64,000 nucleotides of DNA from positions 85,205 through 149,204 of the forward strand of contig JAFVAT010000005.1 of the NCBI GenBank assembly GCA_017480385.1, written 5' to 3'. The position numbers and the translations under genes are program-made. The notes under the pieces are model-generated. The model had not been told where the DNA came from, ran no database searches, and saw nothing but the letters and a program-made list of their open reading frames with translations. Positions 9,893 to 17,860 of the stretch are shown piece by piece (position 1 is the first letter of the stretch; every line of letters begins with the position of its first letter). The DNA is from Alphaproteobacteria bacterium (lineage in GTDB: Bacteria > Pseudomonadota > Alphaproteobacteria > CAAGCB01 > CAG-977).

Positions 9893-10918
9893 CTATTTCA
9901 ATTTATTGTAATCAGAATCGCCGACTTCTTCCAGCCATTCGGTCGAAGCGCCTTCAGCCGGAACGCTCATCGCGATATGCGTGAACCAGCTGTCCTTCGC
10001 CGCGCCGTGCCAATGCTTGACTTCGGCGGGAATATGGACGACATCGCCGAGGTGCAGTTCCTGTGCAGGTTTGCCCCATTCCTGATACCAGCCGCGCCCC
10101 GCCGTCACCAGCAAAATCTGACCGCTCTTGTGATGAACATGCCAGTTGTTGCGGCACTTCGGTTCAAAGGTCACGTTCGCAATGCCGACTTCCTCTTTAT
10201 TCAGCGGCTGTAAATAGCTTGTCCCCTTGAAGTATTTGGCATAAGCCATGTTTTCCTGCCCGAAACCAAACAAAATGTCCTGCGCGGCAGCCTTTTGCGC
10301 GACATTCAGGATTTCCGCCACCTGTTCATCGGTCAACCCGTTATGCTTGCCAACCGCAATATGACTGTTCAGCTGGCTTTCGACGCCGTTACGTACGGAA
10401 AGCATCGCGATCGTCGCCACTTCTCTGGTCTGCCAATCCACATTGTCGCGCGCGAAAATGTCGCCGAACAAATGCGCTTTCAGATATTCGTCGATCGCCG
10501 GCGCGAAATCAAACAGAGGCCCTTTAACCTCCCGTCCCGTCAGCTTTGTCTGATTCGCCGCGCCGTATTCCAAAGCCGTTCCTTTTGGCTTAGCGGAAGG
10601 CAAGCTCCCCTGTTCATCCTTGTTTCCGCGTTCGTTAACAACCGTCATCAACGTGCCCAAAGCGTTTAAGGCCCTCGGGAATCCACAGTAAGCGTAAGCC
10701 TGCGTCAGAATTTCCTTAAACTCGTTGACCGTCACACCGTTATCCAAACCGTTGATCAAAGCCTGTTTCAGCCCTTTTTGATCGCCTTTCGCCGTATAGG
10801 CTGCAACCTCGGCGATTGTTTTTTGTTTCGCGGTCAAAGCTCCGTTTGCCATTGCGTTTCCTCCCGTAAAAAGAATAAGCGCGCCCAGAAACAGCGCAGA
10901 TAAGTTTCTATTCGACAT
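9893..10918 (-). CDS. carboxymuconolactone decarboxylase (CMD) domain + cupin domain fusion, signal peptide
   Basis: Likely start at 10918 (MSNRNLSALFLGALILF...); cupin motif 'HHKSGQILLVTAGRGWYQEWGKP...GDVVHIPAEVKHWHGA'. Confidence 0.55.
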   Translation of the reverse strand: MSNRNLSALFLGALILFTGGNAMANGALTAKQKTIAEVAAYTAKGDQKGLKQALINGLDNGVTVNEFKEILTQAYAYCGFPRALNALGTLMTVVNERGNKDEQGSLPSAKPKGTALEYGAANQTKLTGREVKGPLFDFAPAIDEYLKAHLFGDIFARDNVDWQTREVATIAMLSVRNGVESQLNSHIAVGKHNGLTDEQVAEILNVAQKAAAQDILFGFGQENMAYAKYFKGTSYLQPLNKEEVGIANVTFEPKCRNNWHVHHKSGQILLVTAGRGWYQEWGKPAQELHLGDVVHIPAEVKHWHGAAKDSWFTHIAMSVPAEGASTEWLEEVGDSDYNKLK

Positions 10919-10953
10919 CTTGCACTCCTTGAGTTTTTTTATTAGATTAGCTT

Positions 10954-10975
10954 TTAAAGCTGACTTTAAGTCAAG
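10954..10975 (-). promoter_or_regulatory. operator-like motif TTAAAGctgaCTTTAAGTCAAG with embedded TGACTTtAAGTCA palindrome, upstream of the CMD-cupin operon
   Basis: Matches the 3544-3566 motif and the tetR operator half-sites. Confidence 0.5.
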
Positions 10976-11029
10976 CATTTTTTTAACTGCCGCTGAAAAA
11001 GCATATCAAAGCTAAAACTCTTCTAAAGA

Positions 11030-11593
11030 GTTGTGGTTTGACGCAAAATAATCATCTGCTATAATTCCGTCTGCATATAATTCGACAATCCCCGGCGTTG
11101 CGGTTTGACGCAAAATAATCATCTGCTATAATGGGAGCGGGGAGGAATCACCCGCTCTTTACGTTGCGGTTTGACGCAAAATAATCATCTGCTATAATGA
11201 ATGATCAAGGATTCGGCGGTGTTGATTAGTTGCGGTTTGACGCAAAATAATCATCTGCTATAATCGGACGGGGGATGATAAATATCTCCGCGTTGTTGCG
11301 GTTTGACGCAAAATAATCATCTGCTATAATTCAAGCGCATTATCGATGTCGATGCATAAGTTGCGGTTTGACGCAAAATAATCATCTGCTATAATCAAAG
11401 TCCTTAAAAATGAGACGTAACGGCAGTTGCGGTTTGACGCAAAATAATCATCTGCTATAATTCTTGACCAGCTCTAAAGTCAGTCAAAAAAGTTGCGGTT
11501 TGACGCAAAATAATCATCTGCTATAATTAGGAGCAGTAAGGATGAAGGTTTGCGTTTGTTGCGGTTTGACGCAAAATAATCATCTGCTATAAT
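11030..11593 (+). CRISPR. CRISPR array, 9 x 36-bp repeats (GTTGCGGTTTGACGCAAAATAATCATCTGCTATAAT), 8 spacers of 29-31 bp
   Basis: Repeats start at 11030 (degenerate, C5T), 11097, 11163, 11229, 11295, 11360, 11426, 11492, 11558; unique spacers; each repeat carries TTGACG-N16-TGcTATAAT on the + strand. Confidence 0.95.
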
Positions 11594-11599
11594 ATCAAT

Positions 11600-11632
11600 G
11601 AAAAAAGCCTTTGAAAACAAAGGCTTTTTTCT
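11600..11632. terminator. bidirectional intrinsic terminator between CRISPR array and cas2
   Basis: AAAAAAGCCTTTGaaaaCAAAGGCTTTTTT: 8-bp stem, A-run 5' and T-run 3'. Confidence 0.7.
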
Positions 11633-11643
11633 TTATTTTTCGT

Positions 11644-11973
11644 TTAAAAAAGTGTCAGCTGCTCCGGTTTTTCCGATATCAAAACAGGTTTTCGATTCCG
11701 AAATGTGATAATGTCGGCAAATTGTTTGTCCGTAAAAAACAAAATGCTGACGTTACCGTCCGGCGGAATCTGCTTTTTTATTCTGTTTATAAAAGGCGTC
11801 GCCATTTCCCGCGTGCCGCAAAAGCGGAAATAAACCGAAAACTGGCTCATTTCAAAGCCTTCGTCCAACAAATAATTCCGAAACGCCGTCGCCCGTTTGC
11901 GTTCTTCGGGTTCCGCCACGGGCAAATCGAACATTACCATCATCCACATCAGATTGTATCCCGTCACCGACAC
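11644..11973 (-). CDS. cas2: CRISPR-associated endoribonuclease Cas2 (GTG start)
   Basis: 109 aa; 'MSVTGYNLMWMMVMFDLPV' Cas2 N-terminus; begins 1 nt after cas1 stop. Confidence 0.9.
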   Translation of the reverse strand: MSVTGYNLMWMMVMFDLPVAEPEERKRATAFRNYLLDEGFEMSQFSVYFRFCGTREMATPFINRIKKQIPPDGNVSILFFTDKQFADIITFRNRKPVLISEKPEQLTLF

Positions 11974-11974
11974 A

Positions 11975-12883
11975 TTAAAGGTTCCACAGATTTTTTCCGG
12001 TCATCGCTTCGGGCAAGTTCAGACTGTCCGCTTCCCCCAAAACGCATTTTTGCAAAGAAACCGCCAGATCGGAAATCAGATACCCGACTTCACATTCCCG
12101 ATCGCCCGTTTTCACCGTACGGGACAGCAACGCGACAAGCCGTTTTTTCACTTCCGGCGTAACAGAGCCGAACTCGTCCTCATCCGTCATACGATAGACG
12201 CAAAAATCAACCAGAGGGCGGAACGGTTCCATCAAATCGTCCGCCAGACGCATCGCATTGTATTGATTTTGATGATGTATCCCCAAAGACGGATGCAATC
12301 CCGCCCCCGTAATCGCCCGAACAACCGAGGATCGTAAAATCGTATAACCGTAATTCAGCATCGCGTTAATGCCGTCCTGCGCCCTATCCCTGCGGAAATC
12401 CTTGCCGAACAACGTTTGAAAATAATATTTTGCCCCCTGCCCTTCCAAATTTTTGGGATCGCCGTTTTTGACCTGCTTTGCCATATAACGCAGAGACGCG
12501 TCCGGCTTTGAACAGGTTTTCAAAACTTCCGCCTGTTGCGTCAGTTTGGCTTGAATGATGTCTTTCCAATAACGGTCGGCGGCGGATTGCTTCATTCTAG
12601 CCTGAGCCGTCAGAATGTCGCCCTGCAAATGGTGGTTTTCCAGAGGGATCATAATCGAAGCGGGAACGTGATTCGCTCCGCAAACAACGAAAGGCGCATT
12701 CTGTTCCGCCAACCGGACAAGCAGATTGTTTGAATAGGTCAAGCCGTGCGCGTTGGCAATCACCGCCCCGATCTGATCGATCGGCACGCGCCCGACCTCT
12801 TGCGCGTTTTCATATACGACCATAAAACCGTGATCGACCGCCAGATAGCGATTATCCTGCGTGATTTCGATGATTCTATCCAT
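11975..12883 (-). CDS. cas1: CRISPR-associated endonuclease Cas1 (type II)
   Basis: 302 aa; Cas1 fold motifs; start overlaps cas9 3' end by 8 nt. Confidence 0.95.
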   Translation of the reverse strand: MDRIIEITQDNRYLAVDHGFMVVYENAQEVGRVPIDQIGAVIANAHGLTYSNNLLVRLAEQNAPFVVCGANHVPASIMIPLENHHLQGDILTAQARMKQSAADRYWKDIIQAKLTQQAEVLKTCSKPDASLRYMAKQVKNGDPKNLEGQGAKYYFQTLFGKDFRRDRAQDGINAMLNYGYTILRSSVVRAITGAGLHPSLGIHHQNQYNAMRLADDLMEPFRPLVDFCVYRMTDEDEFGSVTPEVKKRLVALLSRTVKTGDRECEVGYLISDLAVSLQKCVLGEADSLNLPEAMTGKNLWNL

Positions 12884-15800
12884 CCGCCTGCCCTTCCGGA
12901 CGCTTCGGGTCTATCACCCGTCCGTCTATCGTCACGGTGATTTTACGTCCGTTATGTAATCTGAATTGTTCAGCAGATGCGGCCCAAGAAAGTTTATCCG
13001 CTTCTTCTTTCGCAATAAGATGAGGACGTAAATAAAACAAAATACCTGTCATCTTTTTAACTCGGGCGATGATTGTTTCCCCGTCTTTTTCATAAGCGAC
13101 CATATCGTCAATATGCAGACGCATAATCAGTTTGGCGTGGGCGTCCGTATGACGCCATTTCGGAACGAAGTCTTTCTGATGGGCGCAATAGTTCGGAATG
13201 ATCTCGATTTGCCATTTTCCCGCGTTTTTCCCTCTGTCGGGACAGTAAATCTCCGCATACGCGTTTCCGCCGTAAATCGCGTAACGATACGGTTTCCCGT
13301 TTTTATCTTTAAAAGGCAGAATGACATTCTTGTTTCTTTCCCGATACGTCCTGACCTTGCGCGTGTTCCTGTCGGCAAAATAGCTCTGAATGATTGCTTC
13401 GTGTTCGGATTTGTCTTTCCCGTCCAACAAAGCGCGGATTTTATCCGCCGTTCCCGCTTGGTCGATGATGATATCCAAATCCGCCTCCGTTTTAAACTCG
13501 GTCACGGGGACGCGCTGAATCAGTTTCCACGTCCTTTTCTTATCTCCCTCGCCCGCAAAGCCGTAATACGTTTCCTCGTGCAATTTGGCGACCGTCTTTC
13601 CTTCCTGAATAGCTTTTTGCGGGTTGCCGTGGTCGGGTTTATGAGAAATCACCATACGGTCGAACGCGTCCTGCAATTCCCGCAGTCTGAATTCCGGATA
13701 AGGCAGATGAGGCGCCTTTTCCTGCGGCATTTGCGTGGAATAGTCACGTCGTTCCGTGGCATATTTCTGCAACGTCCCCCGTCCCGTGCAAGCGACAATA
13801 AACGCGTCCAAAGCGTGGTGGCGGTGATCCGTCCTATCCTTTTGATCTTCGGGGAACAGAGATTCCAATCCCCAATGGTGGCGCAGTTTCGCCGTCAGCT
13901 GTCCGGGGATGCCCCACACCTTCGACGGATTTGCGGCAAAGCACAAATACTGACGCGCCACCCGCGCCATATATTGCGTATCGGTCAGCATACGCGCCAG
14001 AACATCGTCCAAGTCCTGAAAAGCGTCTTCCCTGAACTTTTTCGCGCGGTTTTTCTTTTCGTCGTGCTTTAAGGAAAAATTTTCAACGCGCCCCAGAATC
14101 TCATTCCAACGTTTTTCATCGGCGTGGAAAGCCTCCCACGGAGAACGATTGCCTTTTTCACGGTTGCACGCACGGCAGGAAATGACTTTGTTGGTGCGGG
14201 CGTCCGAATATGACCGCGCAAACGGCAATAAATGCTCGATTTCAAATTCATCGGAAAACAGATGTTCGAAATTTATTGGCTTGCCGCAGAACGGACAACA
14301 CCTTTGAGACGAATCGTCGGAGGAATCCTCCCACAACTTGTATTTCATCCTGTTGTCATAAGAGTTTTTGACGCCTAAACGCTCCAATTCTTTGGCGATA
14401 CGGTCGTTATCTTTCGTGTTTTCCGTTTGCAACTTGTTCAATTCGTCTTTGGCTTTTTTACCCAACTTCAACTCGCGCGCCAATTCGACGACGATCGATT
14501 CGGGATGACCATAGCGTTTTACCAACTCGTTAATCAACTTTCTGACTTGATTCAGCGCGATGTGAACGGTCGGATTATTGATTTTTCCCCAGTATTTTTC
14601 GGGAAAATCCTTGTCCGCCGCGGCGTTCGTTCCGCCGATGACCGCTTTTGGCATCGCTTCCCCGTAATACGGCAACTCGTCATACACATCGCCCGTTTCC
14701 GGATTGATGAAAGTGTTGTAATATTCGGGTAAAGTCCCTTTCGTCTTTAAAGAAAACGTGTAGCCTGCCGATTCGACCGCCTGATGATACGGCTGTCCTT
14801 CGCGCAGAAAAGGATTTATTTTTCCTAACGCCTTCAAGCTTAAAGACGCCGTGCCGTCTTCCAAAGACGTATGCGCAACGGCTTCCGCCTGCTCCGGACT
14901 TAAAGCGTATTTGTCTTTTAATTCTTCAATCAGTTTCGATTCGTCCTGCGCGTTTAAAAGCAACGCCACGATTTCGTTTTGTTTTTCTCTGTCAAAAGAA
15001 AACCATTCCTTGCCGAAACAAGACTCATCCGCCAACTGCGCCGCCGTCGTGTCCGCGTCAAGTCCTTTGCGTTTTTCCGATTCCAGATTAAACGACACTT
15101 TCGGATTGACGCCGAACGGTTTGAGCAATTTTTTCGCCGCCGACCAGGTCAATGTCCGCTTTTTCTTATCCAAAGCGGAAAAGTCCTTTGCCGTGAAACG
15201 GTATAAAACCTCACGTTCCTCCGGCGTTAAAAAGCGTTCATCATCATCGTAAAGAATTTTCAACTGGTTGATCTGTTGCAATAAACGGCTTTGCTGAAAA
15301 GCAGGATAAGCGCAATACGCGCGGCGTTCGCCTTCCTCGAACTGACATAATCCCAATTCGGGCTGTTTCAACGGACGCTGATTGAAAATGATGTGGAAAA
15401 GATCGTCTTCGATTTCTTTCGACAAACCTTGCTTCGTCATAATTTGCCGAAATTCATCTTCGTACATTGCACGGTCGGGATAAAGCGGATAGGACGCTTT
15501 GCTCTTGACCACGATTGATTTTGCGCGAACAGGAACAAAATCCTGCGTGGAGGTTTTATCTTTGTTCATCAGGTACAGATATTCCCCCAAAGTCCGCGCG
15601 CCCGCTTCCGTCATACGTTTTCTTGTTTCGGCAATCGCGGTCTTCATCGCGCCCGTTTCCGCATCCTTTTTATCCGTCTTTAAATTGCTTTTAAACCCTC
15701 TGCGCTGATTGATGTGAAACAAAGCCCGCCCCAATTCATAGGGAGTCAGCTTTTCATCCAACGCCTTCGCGCGTAAAAAGTAGGGATCAAGCATTTCCAA

Positions 15801-16076
15801 CGCTTTGCGTTCCGCTTCGTCCTGCGGCATCAAACCGTATTTGATCAGCCTGTTCATCAGCGTTTCGCGACGCATCACAAAACGGTCGCGGCGTTTGCGC
15901 ATTCCTCTGGCCGTCCGGCGGGCGACCGCAAGCGGCTCTTTCGTTTTCGAATCCCGTCCGTCCGAAAAAATACGGACACCGAAATTTTCAAAGCGGTACG
16001 GCGCGCCGTCTTTTGTTTCGATGATGCTCCAGCCTAACGACGTTTCGCCCAAATCCAATCCCAAAACATAACGCAT
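12876..16076 (-). CDS. cas9: Cas9, type II-C
   Basis: 1066 aa; RuvC-I 'LGLDLGETSLGW', Arg-rich bridge helix 'RRTARGMRKRRDRFVMRR', HNH 'EIEHLLPFARSYSDARTNKVISCRACNREKGN', RuvC-III 'HHALDAF'; no csn2 or cas4 in the locus. Confidence 0.95.
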   Translation of the reverse strand: MRYVLGLDLGETSLGWSIIETKDGAPYRFENFGVRIFSDGRDSKTKEPLAVARRTARGMRKRRDRFVMRRETLMNRLIKYGLMPQDEAERKALEMLDPYFLRAKALDEKLTPYELGRALFHINQRRGFKSNLKTDKKDAETGAMKTAIAETRKRMTEAGARTLGEYLYLMNKDKTSTQDFVPVRAKSIVVKSKASYPLYPDRAMYEDEFRQIMTKQGLSKEIEDDLFHIIFNQRPLKQPELGLCQFEEGERRAYCAYPAFQQSRLLQQINQLKILYDDDERFLTPEEREVLYRFTAKDFSALDKKKRTLTWSAAKKLLKPFGVNPKVSFNLESEKRKGLDADTTAAQLADESCFGKEWFSFDREKQNEIVALLLNAQDESKLIEELKDKYALSPEQAEAVAHTSLEDGTASLSLKALGKINPFLREGQPYHQAVESAGYTFSLKTKGTLPEYYNTFINPETGDVYDELPYYGEAMPKAVIGGTNAAADKDFPEKYWGKINNPTVHIALNQVRKLINELVKRYGHPESIVVELARELKLGKKAKDELNKLQTENTKDNDRIAKELERLGVKNSYDNRMKYKLWEDSSDDSSQRCCPFCGKPINFEHLFSDEFEIEHLLPFARSYSDARTNKVISCRACNREKGNRSPWEAFHADEKRWNEILGRVENFSLKHDEKKNRAKKFREDAFQDLDDVLARMLTDTQYMARVARQYLCFAANPSKVWGIPGQLTAKLRHHWGLESLFPEDQKDRTDHRHHALDAFIVACTGRGTLQKYATERRDYSTQMPQEKAPHLPYPEFRLRELQDAFDRMVISHKPDHGNPQKAIQEGKTVAKLHEETYYGFAGEGDKKRTWKLIQRVPVTEFKTEADLDIIIDQAGTADKIRALLDGKDKSEHEAIIQSYFADRNTRKVRTYRERNKNVILPFKDKNGKPYRYAIYGGNAYAEIYCPDRGKNAGKWQIEIIPNYCAHQKDFVPKWRHTDAHAKLIMRLHIDDMVAYEKDGETIIARVKKMTGILFYLRPHLIAKEEADKLSWAASAEQFRLHNGRKITVTIDGRVIDPKRPEGQADG

Positions 16077-16149
16077 TGAAAGAAAACTCCTTAAAAATTG
16101 TTTCTAAAAATATTGACATACTTTACAAATATGTGACAACTTATATCTA

Positions 16150-16246
16150 TCATTTTAGCAGATGATTATTTTGTGTCTTTCCGTTAACAAGAATCAGAGA
16201 TTCACAAAATGAAAGGGGTGACTGCGCGTCGCCCCTTTAATTTTTA
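16150..16246 (+). ncRNA. candidate tracrRNA (anti-repeat 16156-16188, terminator 16212-16246)
   Basis: 16156-16172 TAGCAGATGATTATTTT is the exact reverse complement of repeat nt 16-32, with partial complementarity continuing to ~16188; GC hairpin GGGGTGAC/GTCGCCCC + TTTAATTTTT at the 3' end; TTGACA at 16113-16118 upstream. Confidence 0.65.
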
Positions 16247-16333
16247 TGCGGTTTTAGCGAGATTCATCTTGACGAAACAGGCTTTTGAAGTTAAAAGAAA
16301 AGCTCTGGATTTTTGTTTAAAGGAAATTGTGTT

Positions 16334-16633
16334 ATGGCCAAACGTTGCATTATTACCGGAAAAGGCGTGCAGACAGGGAACAATGTTTCTCACGCGAACA
16401 ACAAGACTCGCCGTCGTTTTATGCCGAACTTGCAGTCCGTTTCTTTGCTGAGCGAAACATTGGGTACGACAGTTACATTGCGCATGTCTTCCCGCGGTTT
16501 GCGGACGATTGAACACAACGGCGGATTGGACGCGTTTTTATTGTCCACGCCGAACGGCAAGCTGTCCTGCGAAGCCAAGCGTTTGAAAAAGCGTATTCTG
16601 GGTTCTGCCGAAAAGCACGCCGCGCAAGCTTAA
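16334..16633 (+). CDS. rpmB: 50S ribosomal protein L28
   Basis: '[34 protein letters not shown]' is the canonical bL28 N-terminus. Confidence 0.9.
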
Positions 16634-16650
16634 TCGCTGCCGCAAGAATT

Positions 16651-16688
16651 AAAAAAACCGTCCGATATTTTCGGGCGGTTTTTTTTGT
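16651..16688. terminator. bidirectional terminator after rpmB
   Basis: ACCGTCCG(n7)CGGGCGGT stem flanked by A-run and T-run. Confidence 0.6.
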
Positions 16689-16714
16689 TGCCGGCAATAA
16701 AAACTTAAAGAAAA

Positions 16715-17860
16715 TCACTGGCATAAATTCTGCTGTATTATTTTTTCAAATAAATCCTTTGAGGCATTTTGTTCTTCTTCCGAAAAAGGAAAAGATATTA
16801 TATCGTTTTTCTCTTTTTCTTTATTCGGATTAACGGGCAGCATTTTGACCAACTCAGCTTGCGGGATTTTGCAAATTTTGCTGTAATCAACCGTTTTTTC
16901 TTTGATTTCCAACGTATTTTTAAACGTTACCGTGCAAACATCGTCACTGAAAACCGAAGAAAGTCCTTTCGTGATTTTAACGCCGCCAAAGGAACTGCTT
17001 TCAGAACCCGAATTATGTTGCTTTTCTCCAGAAGCACAGGCCTTTATTGCTCCAAACAGGCCGGTTGTCGAATATTCGGGAATATATTTTGCGGCGGCAG
17101 AATCTTCAGCGAAAGAATAAAAGTCCGTCCATGCTTCGATTTTTTGAGCTTGCGTTTTATTCAAAGAAAACTCAAACGGGGGCATTTTAATTTGGCACAA
17201 ACCGTTTTTAATGCCTGTTATTTCCGCGGTCATTTTAAAAAAAGTAATCTTTTTTTCTGTTTCGGCAGCACGACAAACGCGTAAACCTTCGATAAAGTCT
17301 TGAGACAGAGCGAATGTTTTGCGCTGCAGTTTTTCCATATCCTGTTCTGACAATTTTATATCCCGTTTTTCGCAGGCCGATTCTGAAATTTTTTTCCACG
17401 CAATATTCATTTTCGTATCCGTAACGGTCATTTCCATCGGCTTTTTTTCCTGAGTCCCGTCGGGCTTGGAATAGGAGATATAAGTCGTGAACGTTTCCGT
17501 AACCTGATCTGTCGACGTATCCGTCATCGCGTCGCGGATTTCTGTCAGCTGTTCAGGAGAAACAGAGCAGGCATAATCAGAAAGAACGATGTCGTCCATT
17601 TGACTGGCGATCGAAAAATCGCAAAAGCCTTTATCGTTTTTACCCTTGATCCGAATATAAGTCGCTATGTCGTCCAATCCGAAAAATTGAGTAAACATTT
17701 TTAAAATCGGATTAGAATTTGTGAAGTTTTCCTCATAAGGAGCACACTCTTTCGCCGCATTTTTCAGTTCGTCCGTAAAATGATAAAAGGGAGCTGACTG
17801 TGCTTTTGCATGAAAAGCAGACAAGCCGAAAAGCAGGAAAAGGGTCAGACTTTTTTTCAT
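16715..17860 (-). CDS. hypothetical secreted Cys-containing protein
   Basis: 381 aa; signal 'MKKSLTLFLLFGLSAFHAKAQS'; no recognisable motifs. Confidence 0.45.
   Translation of the reverse strand: MKKSLTLFLLFGLSAFHAKAQSAPFYHFTDELKNAAKECAPYEENFTNSNPILKMFTQFFGLDDIATYIRIKGKNDKGFCDFSIASQMDDIVLSDYACSVSPEQLTEIRDAMTDTSTDQVTETFTTYISYSKPDGTQEKKPMEMTVTDTKMNIAWKKISESACEKRDIKLSEQDMEKLQRKTFALSQDFIEGLRVCRAAETEKKITFFKMTAEITGIKNGLCQIKMPPFEFSLNKTQAQKIEAWTDFYSFAEDSAAAKYIPEYSTTGLFGAIKACASGEKQHNSGSESSSFGGVKITKGLSSVFSDDVCTVTFKNTLEIKEKTVDYSKICKIPQAELVKMLPVNPNKEKEKNDIISFPFSEEEQNASKDLFEKIIQQNLCQ

Follow-up and report, generated by a model that had tools for sequence, protein, structure and literature searches.

The stretch of DNA analysed here, hereafter the window, is 64 kb long and contains a complete type II-C CRISPR-Cas locus, made up of cas9, cas1 and cas2 on the minus strand and a CRISPR array with nine repeats. 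The cas9 gene (12876-16076, start at 16076) encodes a protein of 1066 aa that matches TIGR01865 with 586 bits. It overlaps cas1 (11975-12883; type II, NMENI subtype, TIGR03639 with 262 bits), which is followed by cas2 (11644-11973; TIGR01573 with 67.5 bits). The structures nearest to the window Cas9 are all type II-C Cas9 proteins. On the other side of the cas9 start, rpmB (16334-16633, + strand) encodes an L28 of 99 aa, which is the long form typical of alphaproteobacteria.

The array (11030-11593, + strand) consists of 36-nt repeats, read on the + strand as GTTGCGGTTTGACGCAAAATAATCATCTGCTATAAT, and 30-nt spacers. A lone degenerate repeat (11030-11065, C5 to T) is its first and lies at the cas2-distal, transcription-upstream end; in related loci terminal repeats are also degenerate at the cas2-distal end. 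Between the last repeat and the cas2 stop codon lies a perfect 14-bp hairpin (11600-11631), flanked by T runs on either strand, which probably acts as a bidirectional terminator for the converging transcripts of array and cas operon.

All nine repeats were found by the promoter scan to contain TTGACG-16-TGCTATAAT on the + strand, with 11 of 12 consensus matches and an extended -10 TG, and have by their sequence the type of repeat-embedded promoter known from N. meningitidis. Since these promoters point toward the cas operon, the array is expected to be transcribed on the + strand from within its repeats. The type II-C systems of N. meningitidis and C. jejuni have repeat-embedded promoters and an array that is transcribed opposite to the cas operon (PMC5965381; PMC3737331). 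In the window, crRNAs would start some 6-8 nt into each 30-nt spacer, resulting in guides of about 23-24 nt ahead of the repeat.

Sequence and fold of the predicted tracrRNA

The sequence TAGCAGATGATTATTTT occurs ten times in the 64-kb window, where 0.01 occurrences are expected by chance. Nine copies are on the minus strand, in the repeats; the tenth, on the + strand at 16156-16172, is the sole copy outside the array repeats. The first-pass annotation had described this segment as perfectly complementary to the 3' half of the repeat and as part of a candidate tracrRNA of about 95 nt, encoded between the cas9 start and rpmB on the strand opposite to cas9. Both the exact copy and its location are as described: the anti-repeat is inverted, on the + strand and 76 bp upstream of cas9. 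It had further proposed partial pairing over about 15 more nt. Pairing indeed continues, yet its extent was underestimated, as in the cofold the whole 36-nt repeat is covered. The anti-repeat is thus placed at 16152-16188 and is, as a + strand transcript, complementary to the whole repeat, from which it differs at several positions.

The predicted transcript runs from 16149 to 16246 on the + strand and measures approximately 97 nt, within the 75-170 nt used as a length criterion for tracrRNAs. Its 5' end was set by promoter geometry and a conserved ATCAT, its 3' end by the T tract. Downstream of the anti-repeat and an AAG junction lies a 5-bp hairpin (GAAUC-AGA-GAUUC, 16191-16203) at the position of the nexus or stem-loop 1, an element that the first-pass annotation lacked. 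It is followed by an A-rich single-stranded linker, ACAAAAUG (16204-16211), several positions of which are invariant, and by an intrinsic terminator (16212-16245). The GC-rich hairpin and T tract noted earlier were recovered here by the terminator scan as the best terminator-like site of the region, with an 11-bp stem (16212-16238, AAAGGGGTGAC-TGCGC-GTCGCCCCTTT), a UGCGC loop and TTTAATTTTT extending to 16245.

The in silico fold of crRNA and tracrRNA, suggested by the first-pass annotation, was obtained by cofolding the repeat with 16150-16247. In it, a helix of 22 bp is separated by a symmetric 3x3 UUU/UUU internal loop from a helix of 7 bp, which contains one bulged U and adjoins the spacer-proximal end of the repeat, giving 29-32 bp over the full 36-nt repeat. 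On the 3' side of the duplex follow the AAG, the 5-bp hairpin, the A-rich linker and the terminator hairpin, and the total amounts to -65.2 kcal/mol. Folded alone, the predicted RNA has an energy z of -4.1 as compared to shuffles.

No second anti-repeat was found, be it around the array, between cas9 and cas1 or elsewhere in the window; with their overlap, cas9 and cas1 leave no intergenic room for a tracrRNA. The anti-repeat of type II-C systems is usually located upstream of cas9 (PMC3737331). An Rfam scan of 10500-17500 with E<=10 gave no match to the tracrRNA family RF02348, which represents the same functional class, and no Rfam family that fits the element. A match to sraA over the element was rejected as being at chance level (23.6 bits versus a gathering score of 56, E 3.5). 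Sequences of tracrRNAs are considered too diverse for a single model (PMC3737331). The sequence does hold the features by which a type II tracrRNA is recognized: its locus, an intergenic anti-repeat, the polarity, a promoter combined with a Rho-independent terminator, and a structured 3' tail.

Predicted promoters between cas9 and the probable tracrRNA gene

The TTGACA hexamer at 16113-16118, which the first-pass annotation listed as -35-like, is present and is conserved as TTG(A/C)(C/A)(A/C) in 12 of 12 alphaproteobacterial loci (the related loci are described below). An extended -10 element, TGaCAACTT (16134-16142), with the TG at 16134-16135 and the hexamer CAACTT at 16137-16142, is found 18 nt past the -35 box. 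The complete geometry, consisting of the -35 box, 17-18 nt, TGn, CAAnnT, 5-6 nt and ATCAT, is shared by 11 of the 12 loci, the exception being L009 with AGG-CAACAT. A consensus promoter scan called no + strand promoter upstream of the anti-repeat, because CAACTT is far from TATAAT, with which it shares two of six positions. A relaxed -10 is known among alphaproteobacterial sigma-70 promoters. The predicted tracrRNA promoter is supported by its conservation rather than by a consensus match. It puts the likely transcription start around A16149, about 3 nt ahead of the anti-repeat.

The + strand further upstream of this promoter is the cas9 start codon region. A long, autoregulatory form such as the natural single-guide tracr-L of S. 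pyogenes, which starts at an upstream promoter, folds its 5' extension back on the anti-repeat and represses the cas9 promoter, was considered and seems unlikely, as neither a second promoter nor a 5' extension is found upstream.

Only 37 nt separate the tracrRNA -35 box from the cas9 start codon. Because of this, the cas9 promoter would have to overlap the tracrRNA promoter or lie within the tracrRNA gene, and both readings have a candidate. The first is a mirrored promoter on the minus strand (16110-16139), composed of TTGTCA (16139-16134), 18 nt and TGTCAATAT (16118-16110), which would yield a 5' UTR of about 27 nt with AAGGAG as its ribosome-binding site. Directly 5' of the tracrRNA -35 box, AT(A/C) is conserved in 12 of 12 loci, something that a -35 box does not require. 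The claim of divergent promoters in the cas9 upstream region of about 75 bp is plausible and consistent with the conserved mirrored motifs. The second candidate is a promoter-like site inside the anti-repeat (16152-16179, minus strand), detected by the promoter scan as AAGACA-16-TGCTAAAAT with a TG motif and directed toward cas9. The T at position 6 of its -10 is found in just six of the 12 loci, which is why this site is probably a vestige of the origin of the anti-repeat from a repeat.

We tentatively envisage, as a possibility that we would not bet on, that the tracrRNA and cas9 promoters form one overlapping unit in mirror arrangement, each -35 box being the extended -10 of the other. Synthesis of the two transcripts would then be coupled or mutually exclusive, with RNA polymerase engaging one direction at a time, and cas9 would receive additional input, varying by lineage, from the promoter in the anti-repeat.

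The site inside the anti-repeat also allows for a different explanation of the whole element, namely that the repeat-like sequence works on the minus strand only, as a repeat-derived promoter or as an element of the cas9 5' UTR, and that no + strand small RNA is made. The repeat promoter is kept at 16179 to 16152 on the strand of cas9, a gene that requires a promoter and that starts just some 75 bp away. The critical T of the -10 is, however, retained in half of the relatives only (6/12), and the conserved + strand promoter would be left unexplained. Moreover, type II systems depend on a tracrRNA, and the window holds no other anti-repeat. Further evidence on the strand comes from the comparison of loci.

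Conservation and co-variation among related loci

A scan of one genome per species identified 20 loci that encode a related Cas9. Eleven of these are from alphaproteobacterial MAGs of gut, rumen or faecal origin with 61-89% Cas9 identity, among which 'Acetobacter sp. CAG:977', three are Kangiella loci (43%) and six are Verrucomicrobia, Opitutales or Marinicella loci (approximately 39%). All alphaproteobacterial, Kangiella, Verrucomicrobia and Opitutales loci have the order cas9-cas1-cas2-array and 36-nt repeats, and the relatives' repeats differ at several positions. For each locus the best non-array match to its own repeat was searched on both strands of the whole locus. In L001-L013, L017, L018 and L020 this match is on the strand opposite to cas9 and 70-160 bp upstream of it. 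The same element is kept in position and orientation in 14 related loci, with Cas9 identities of 43-89%.

A covariance model, R1, was made from 15 element sequences. In the window it has one strong match, 16150-16251 (+), with 104 bits and an E-value of 3.7e-17. Each locus has exactly one strong match; other, weak matches correspond to CRISPR repeats. Among loci on which the model was not trained, weaker matches at the equivalent position were obtained in L016, L018 and L019, and a marginal one in L017 (E 0.17).

Several loci deviate in their layout. In L015, a Verrucomicrobia MAG, the anti-repeat and the R1 match (11810-11937, minus strand) are located downstream of the array rather than upstream of cas9, which indicates a relocation of the tracrRNA gene within this family of Cas9 loci. 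No anti-repeat turned up in L014, a close relative of L015 whose contig ends at the array. L016 (9-1716) and L019 (3864-4871) have a second, unrelated CRISPR array upstream of cas9, which is the only array found there; in L016 it comprises 29 copies of a 28-nt repeat, GTTAACCGCCGCAAAGGCGGCTTAGAAA. Such an array points to an adjacent CRISPR system of a different type. In no relative is cas9 adjoined by rpmB or by the gene past the window array (9893-10978), and the cassette of tracrRNA, cas9, cas1, cas2 and array thus appears in a different genomic context in each genome.

With rpmB some 90 nt downstream on the same strand and a terminator at its own end, the element might be a leader, an attenuator or an unrelated small RNA of rpmB. 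We regard this as extremely improbable: none of the 20 related loci has an L28 gene in the stretch of up to 7 kb around cas9, the element is retained next to cas9 instead, and Rfam gave no leader match here, only sraA at chance level (E 3.5).

Co-variation of repeat and anti-repeat was analysed by joining each repeat to the anti-repeat of its own locus in the 12 alphaproteobacterial loci. The proportion of cells that are paired is 98.6%, as compared to 36-58% with the partner shifted by 1-3 columns. Compensatory changes are seen in five pairs, with five pair types at one position, and the covariation score was reached by none of 500 shuffles. For each repeat the own anti-repeat outperforms the average foreign one by 5-16 kcal/mol. 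In the 15-sequence alignment A3, prepared in sgRNA style, the Kangiella rows are out of register; this alignment was kept out of the pair counts, and the Kangiella pairing was judged by comparing duplex energies of own and cross combinations. The strongly diverged Kangiella pair has -35.0 kcal/mol versus -16 to -23 in cross combinations. The co-variation could in part reflect gene conversion among repeat copies at the DNA level, rather than selection at the RNA level.

The + strand RNA duplex is more stable than its minus-strand counterpart in 14 of 15 loci; in L005 the opposite-strand duplex is more stable by 2.3 kcal/mol. Non-Watson-Crick cells of the duplex comprise 25 G:U and 3 A·C. G:U pairs form only on the proposed strand, and the A·C cells would pair only on the other strand, so the large excess of G:U points to the + strand. 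An element that worked on the minus strand only would leave this imbalance unexplained, as well as the conserved and covarying + strand hairpin and terminator, and we consider it very improbable. The first-pass annotation had named transcription of the anti-repeat on the minus strand alone, within the cas9 5' UTR, as the case that would speak against a tracrRNA; duplex stability, the ratio of G:U to A·C and the repeat promoters all counter it. By the same evidence tracrRNA and crRNA would have the same transcriptional polarity.

The 3' tail was analysed using 15 sequences. Given the raw MAFFT alignment, RNAalifold overlooked the short hairpin as a result of misplaced gaps and proposed a spurious helix in the anti-repeat; pair counts were made with an explicit structure in its place. 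Hairpin and terminator are 92% paired, as compared to about 50% when slid, and have compensatory changes in 14 of 16 pairs: four of five in the short hairpin, where 96.8% of the cells are paired, and ten of 11 in the terminator stem. None of 500 shuffles reached the covariation score of the tail. Intramolecular G:U and A·C cells number 14 versus 7, a modest strand signal that is weaker than that of the duplex.

The junction CCGYTAACAAG is nearly invariant across 15 loci, and the linker positions C54, A55, A58, A59 and T61 (numbered as in alignment A1) are invariant; both include Kangiella. In L006 (4370-4471, minus strand) and L009 (6805-6906, minus strand) the hairpin after the AAG is down to approximately 2-3 bp and has a large loop (GCUGAAAUAUGC), similar to the weak hairpin (GCAUUCGAUUGC) of the validated tracrRNA of SdoCas9, introduced below. 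A stable stem at this site may therefore not be essential.

These data also bear on the idea that array rearrangement left the element behind as a decayed, functionless solo repeat near a fortuitous terminator. Anti-repeats of tracrRNAs are thought to derive from degenerate repeats (PMC3737331), and the element does depart from the repeat at several positions. A neutral remnant would, however, show none of what is seen here: position and orientation are held down to 43% Cas9 identity, the element changes in step with the repeat of its own locus and the flanking helices carry compensatory changes. We therefore rate a functionless remnant as highly improbable.

Relation to known tracrRNAs and significance

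The closest described systems belong to clade IX of Gasiunas et al. 2020, which includes SdoCas9 of Sulfitobacter donghicola (1070 aa; tracrRNA ...GAGCCGUUAACAAGCAUUCGAUUGCACCACAUUAAAACGCGGGCC...) and Ghh1Cas9 (1094 aa; tracrRNA ...CCACCCGUUAACAAGCACCUUGAGUGCAAAAAAUU...), and whose Sdo and Ghh1 tracrRNAs were tested biochemically and used in working sgRNAs (PMC7606464). Judged by sequences and cofolds, the window element has a guide RNA module of this type. The order of modules and the junction CCGUUAACAAG are identical. In cofolds of all three, the repeat start GUUGCGG pairs with CCG-U-UAAC, where the same U is bulged. Next comes AAG, and past the AAG each has a short hairpin, an A-rich linker and a terminator rich in GC. 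Lengths are also comparable, with 91-106 nt for Sdo and Ghh1 and about 97 nt in the window. Over the N-terminal 400 aa, the residues that were available, the identity of the window Cas9 to Ghh1Cas9 is 42%. Ghh1Cas9 performs better with 24-nt than with 20-nt guides (PMC7606464), in agreement with the guide length expected from the repeat promoters of the window.

There are also differences. The central part of the anti-repeat is unrelated, AU-rich in the window whereas it is GC-rich in Sdo and Ghh1, and the 3x3 UUU/UUU internal loop belongs to the window duplex. Ghh1 has an extra stem-loop ahead of its terminator. Finally, the host of the window is of another lineage and uncultured, and its element is a predicted RNA.

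The EH metagenomic CRISPR-Cas9 system resembles the window in having a tracrRNA gene of approximately 100 bp upstream of cas9, with predicted promoter and terminator, the order cas9-cas1-cas2-array, 36-bp repeats, an array that is proposed to be transcribed in the direction of the tracrRNA via repeat promoters, and closest Cas9 homologues that are alphaproteobacterial (PMC10281378). Unlike the window locus, which was read from DNA sequence, EH was validated experimentally in E. coli (PMC10281378). With N. meningitidis and C. jejuni (Zhang et al. 2013, Dugar et al. 2013, reviewed in PMC5965381; PMC3737331) the window shares the repeat promoters and the array opposite to the cas operon, as well as a mutated repeat at the transcription-upstream end and a length similar to that of their primary tracrRNAs of 75-110 nt (PMC5965381; PMC3737331). 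The window tail is simpler than theirs, with one 5-bp hairpin and a terminator, and the tracrRNA sequence is unrelated save for the GUUG...CAAC/AAG ends. The Cas9 proteins are distant too, with a phmmer E-value of 1e-61 to the 1082-residue type II-C chain 6jdq, which we take to be Nme1Cas9. A full-text search found the repeat and tracrRNA sequences of the window in no indexed paper.

Altogether we hold it to be very probable that 16149-16246 (+) encodes the tracrRNA of this type II-C CRISPR-Cas9 system, whose host is an uncultured alphaproteobacterium from gut or rumen. The layout of a type II tracrRNA, as put forward by the first-pass annotation, is borne out by the predicted length, the full-length duplex, the covarying tail and the conserved position. 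We infer that the element is transcribed, where its transcription would start and end, that it would be bound by Cas9 and be active, and any processing by RNase III. A promoter of its own (TTGACA, 18 nt, TGaCAACTT) would drive tracrRNA synthesis in the direction away from cas9, up to the intrinsic terminator, and crRNAs would be made from the same DNA strand via the promoter in each repeat. The 5' 37 nt would pair with the crRNA repeat, and the AAG junction, short hairpin, A-rich linker and terminator hairpin would form the handle for Cas9 binding. The resulting complex of Cas9, crRNA and tracrRNA would cut matching DNA.

The element closely matches tracrRNAs tested in related Cas9 systems, and its arrangement, the logic of its biogenesis and its RNA architecture have been described before. 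The finding raises no new biological question; the physically overlapping, mirrored pair of tracrRNA and cas9 promoters is the sole mildly novel possibility. What it adds is a completed annotation for the type II-C system of an uncultured alphaproteobacterial lineage from gut and rumen, together with the parts for sgRNA design, namely repeat, anti-repeat, junction and tail, for the 1066-aa Cas9 and its relatives. The comparison of 15 loci provides an unusually clean case of co-evolution of repeat and anti-repeat, and it defines the invariant positions of these tracrRNAs as CCGYUAACAAG and the A-rich linker.
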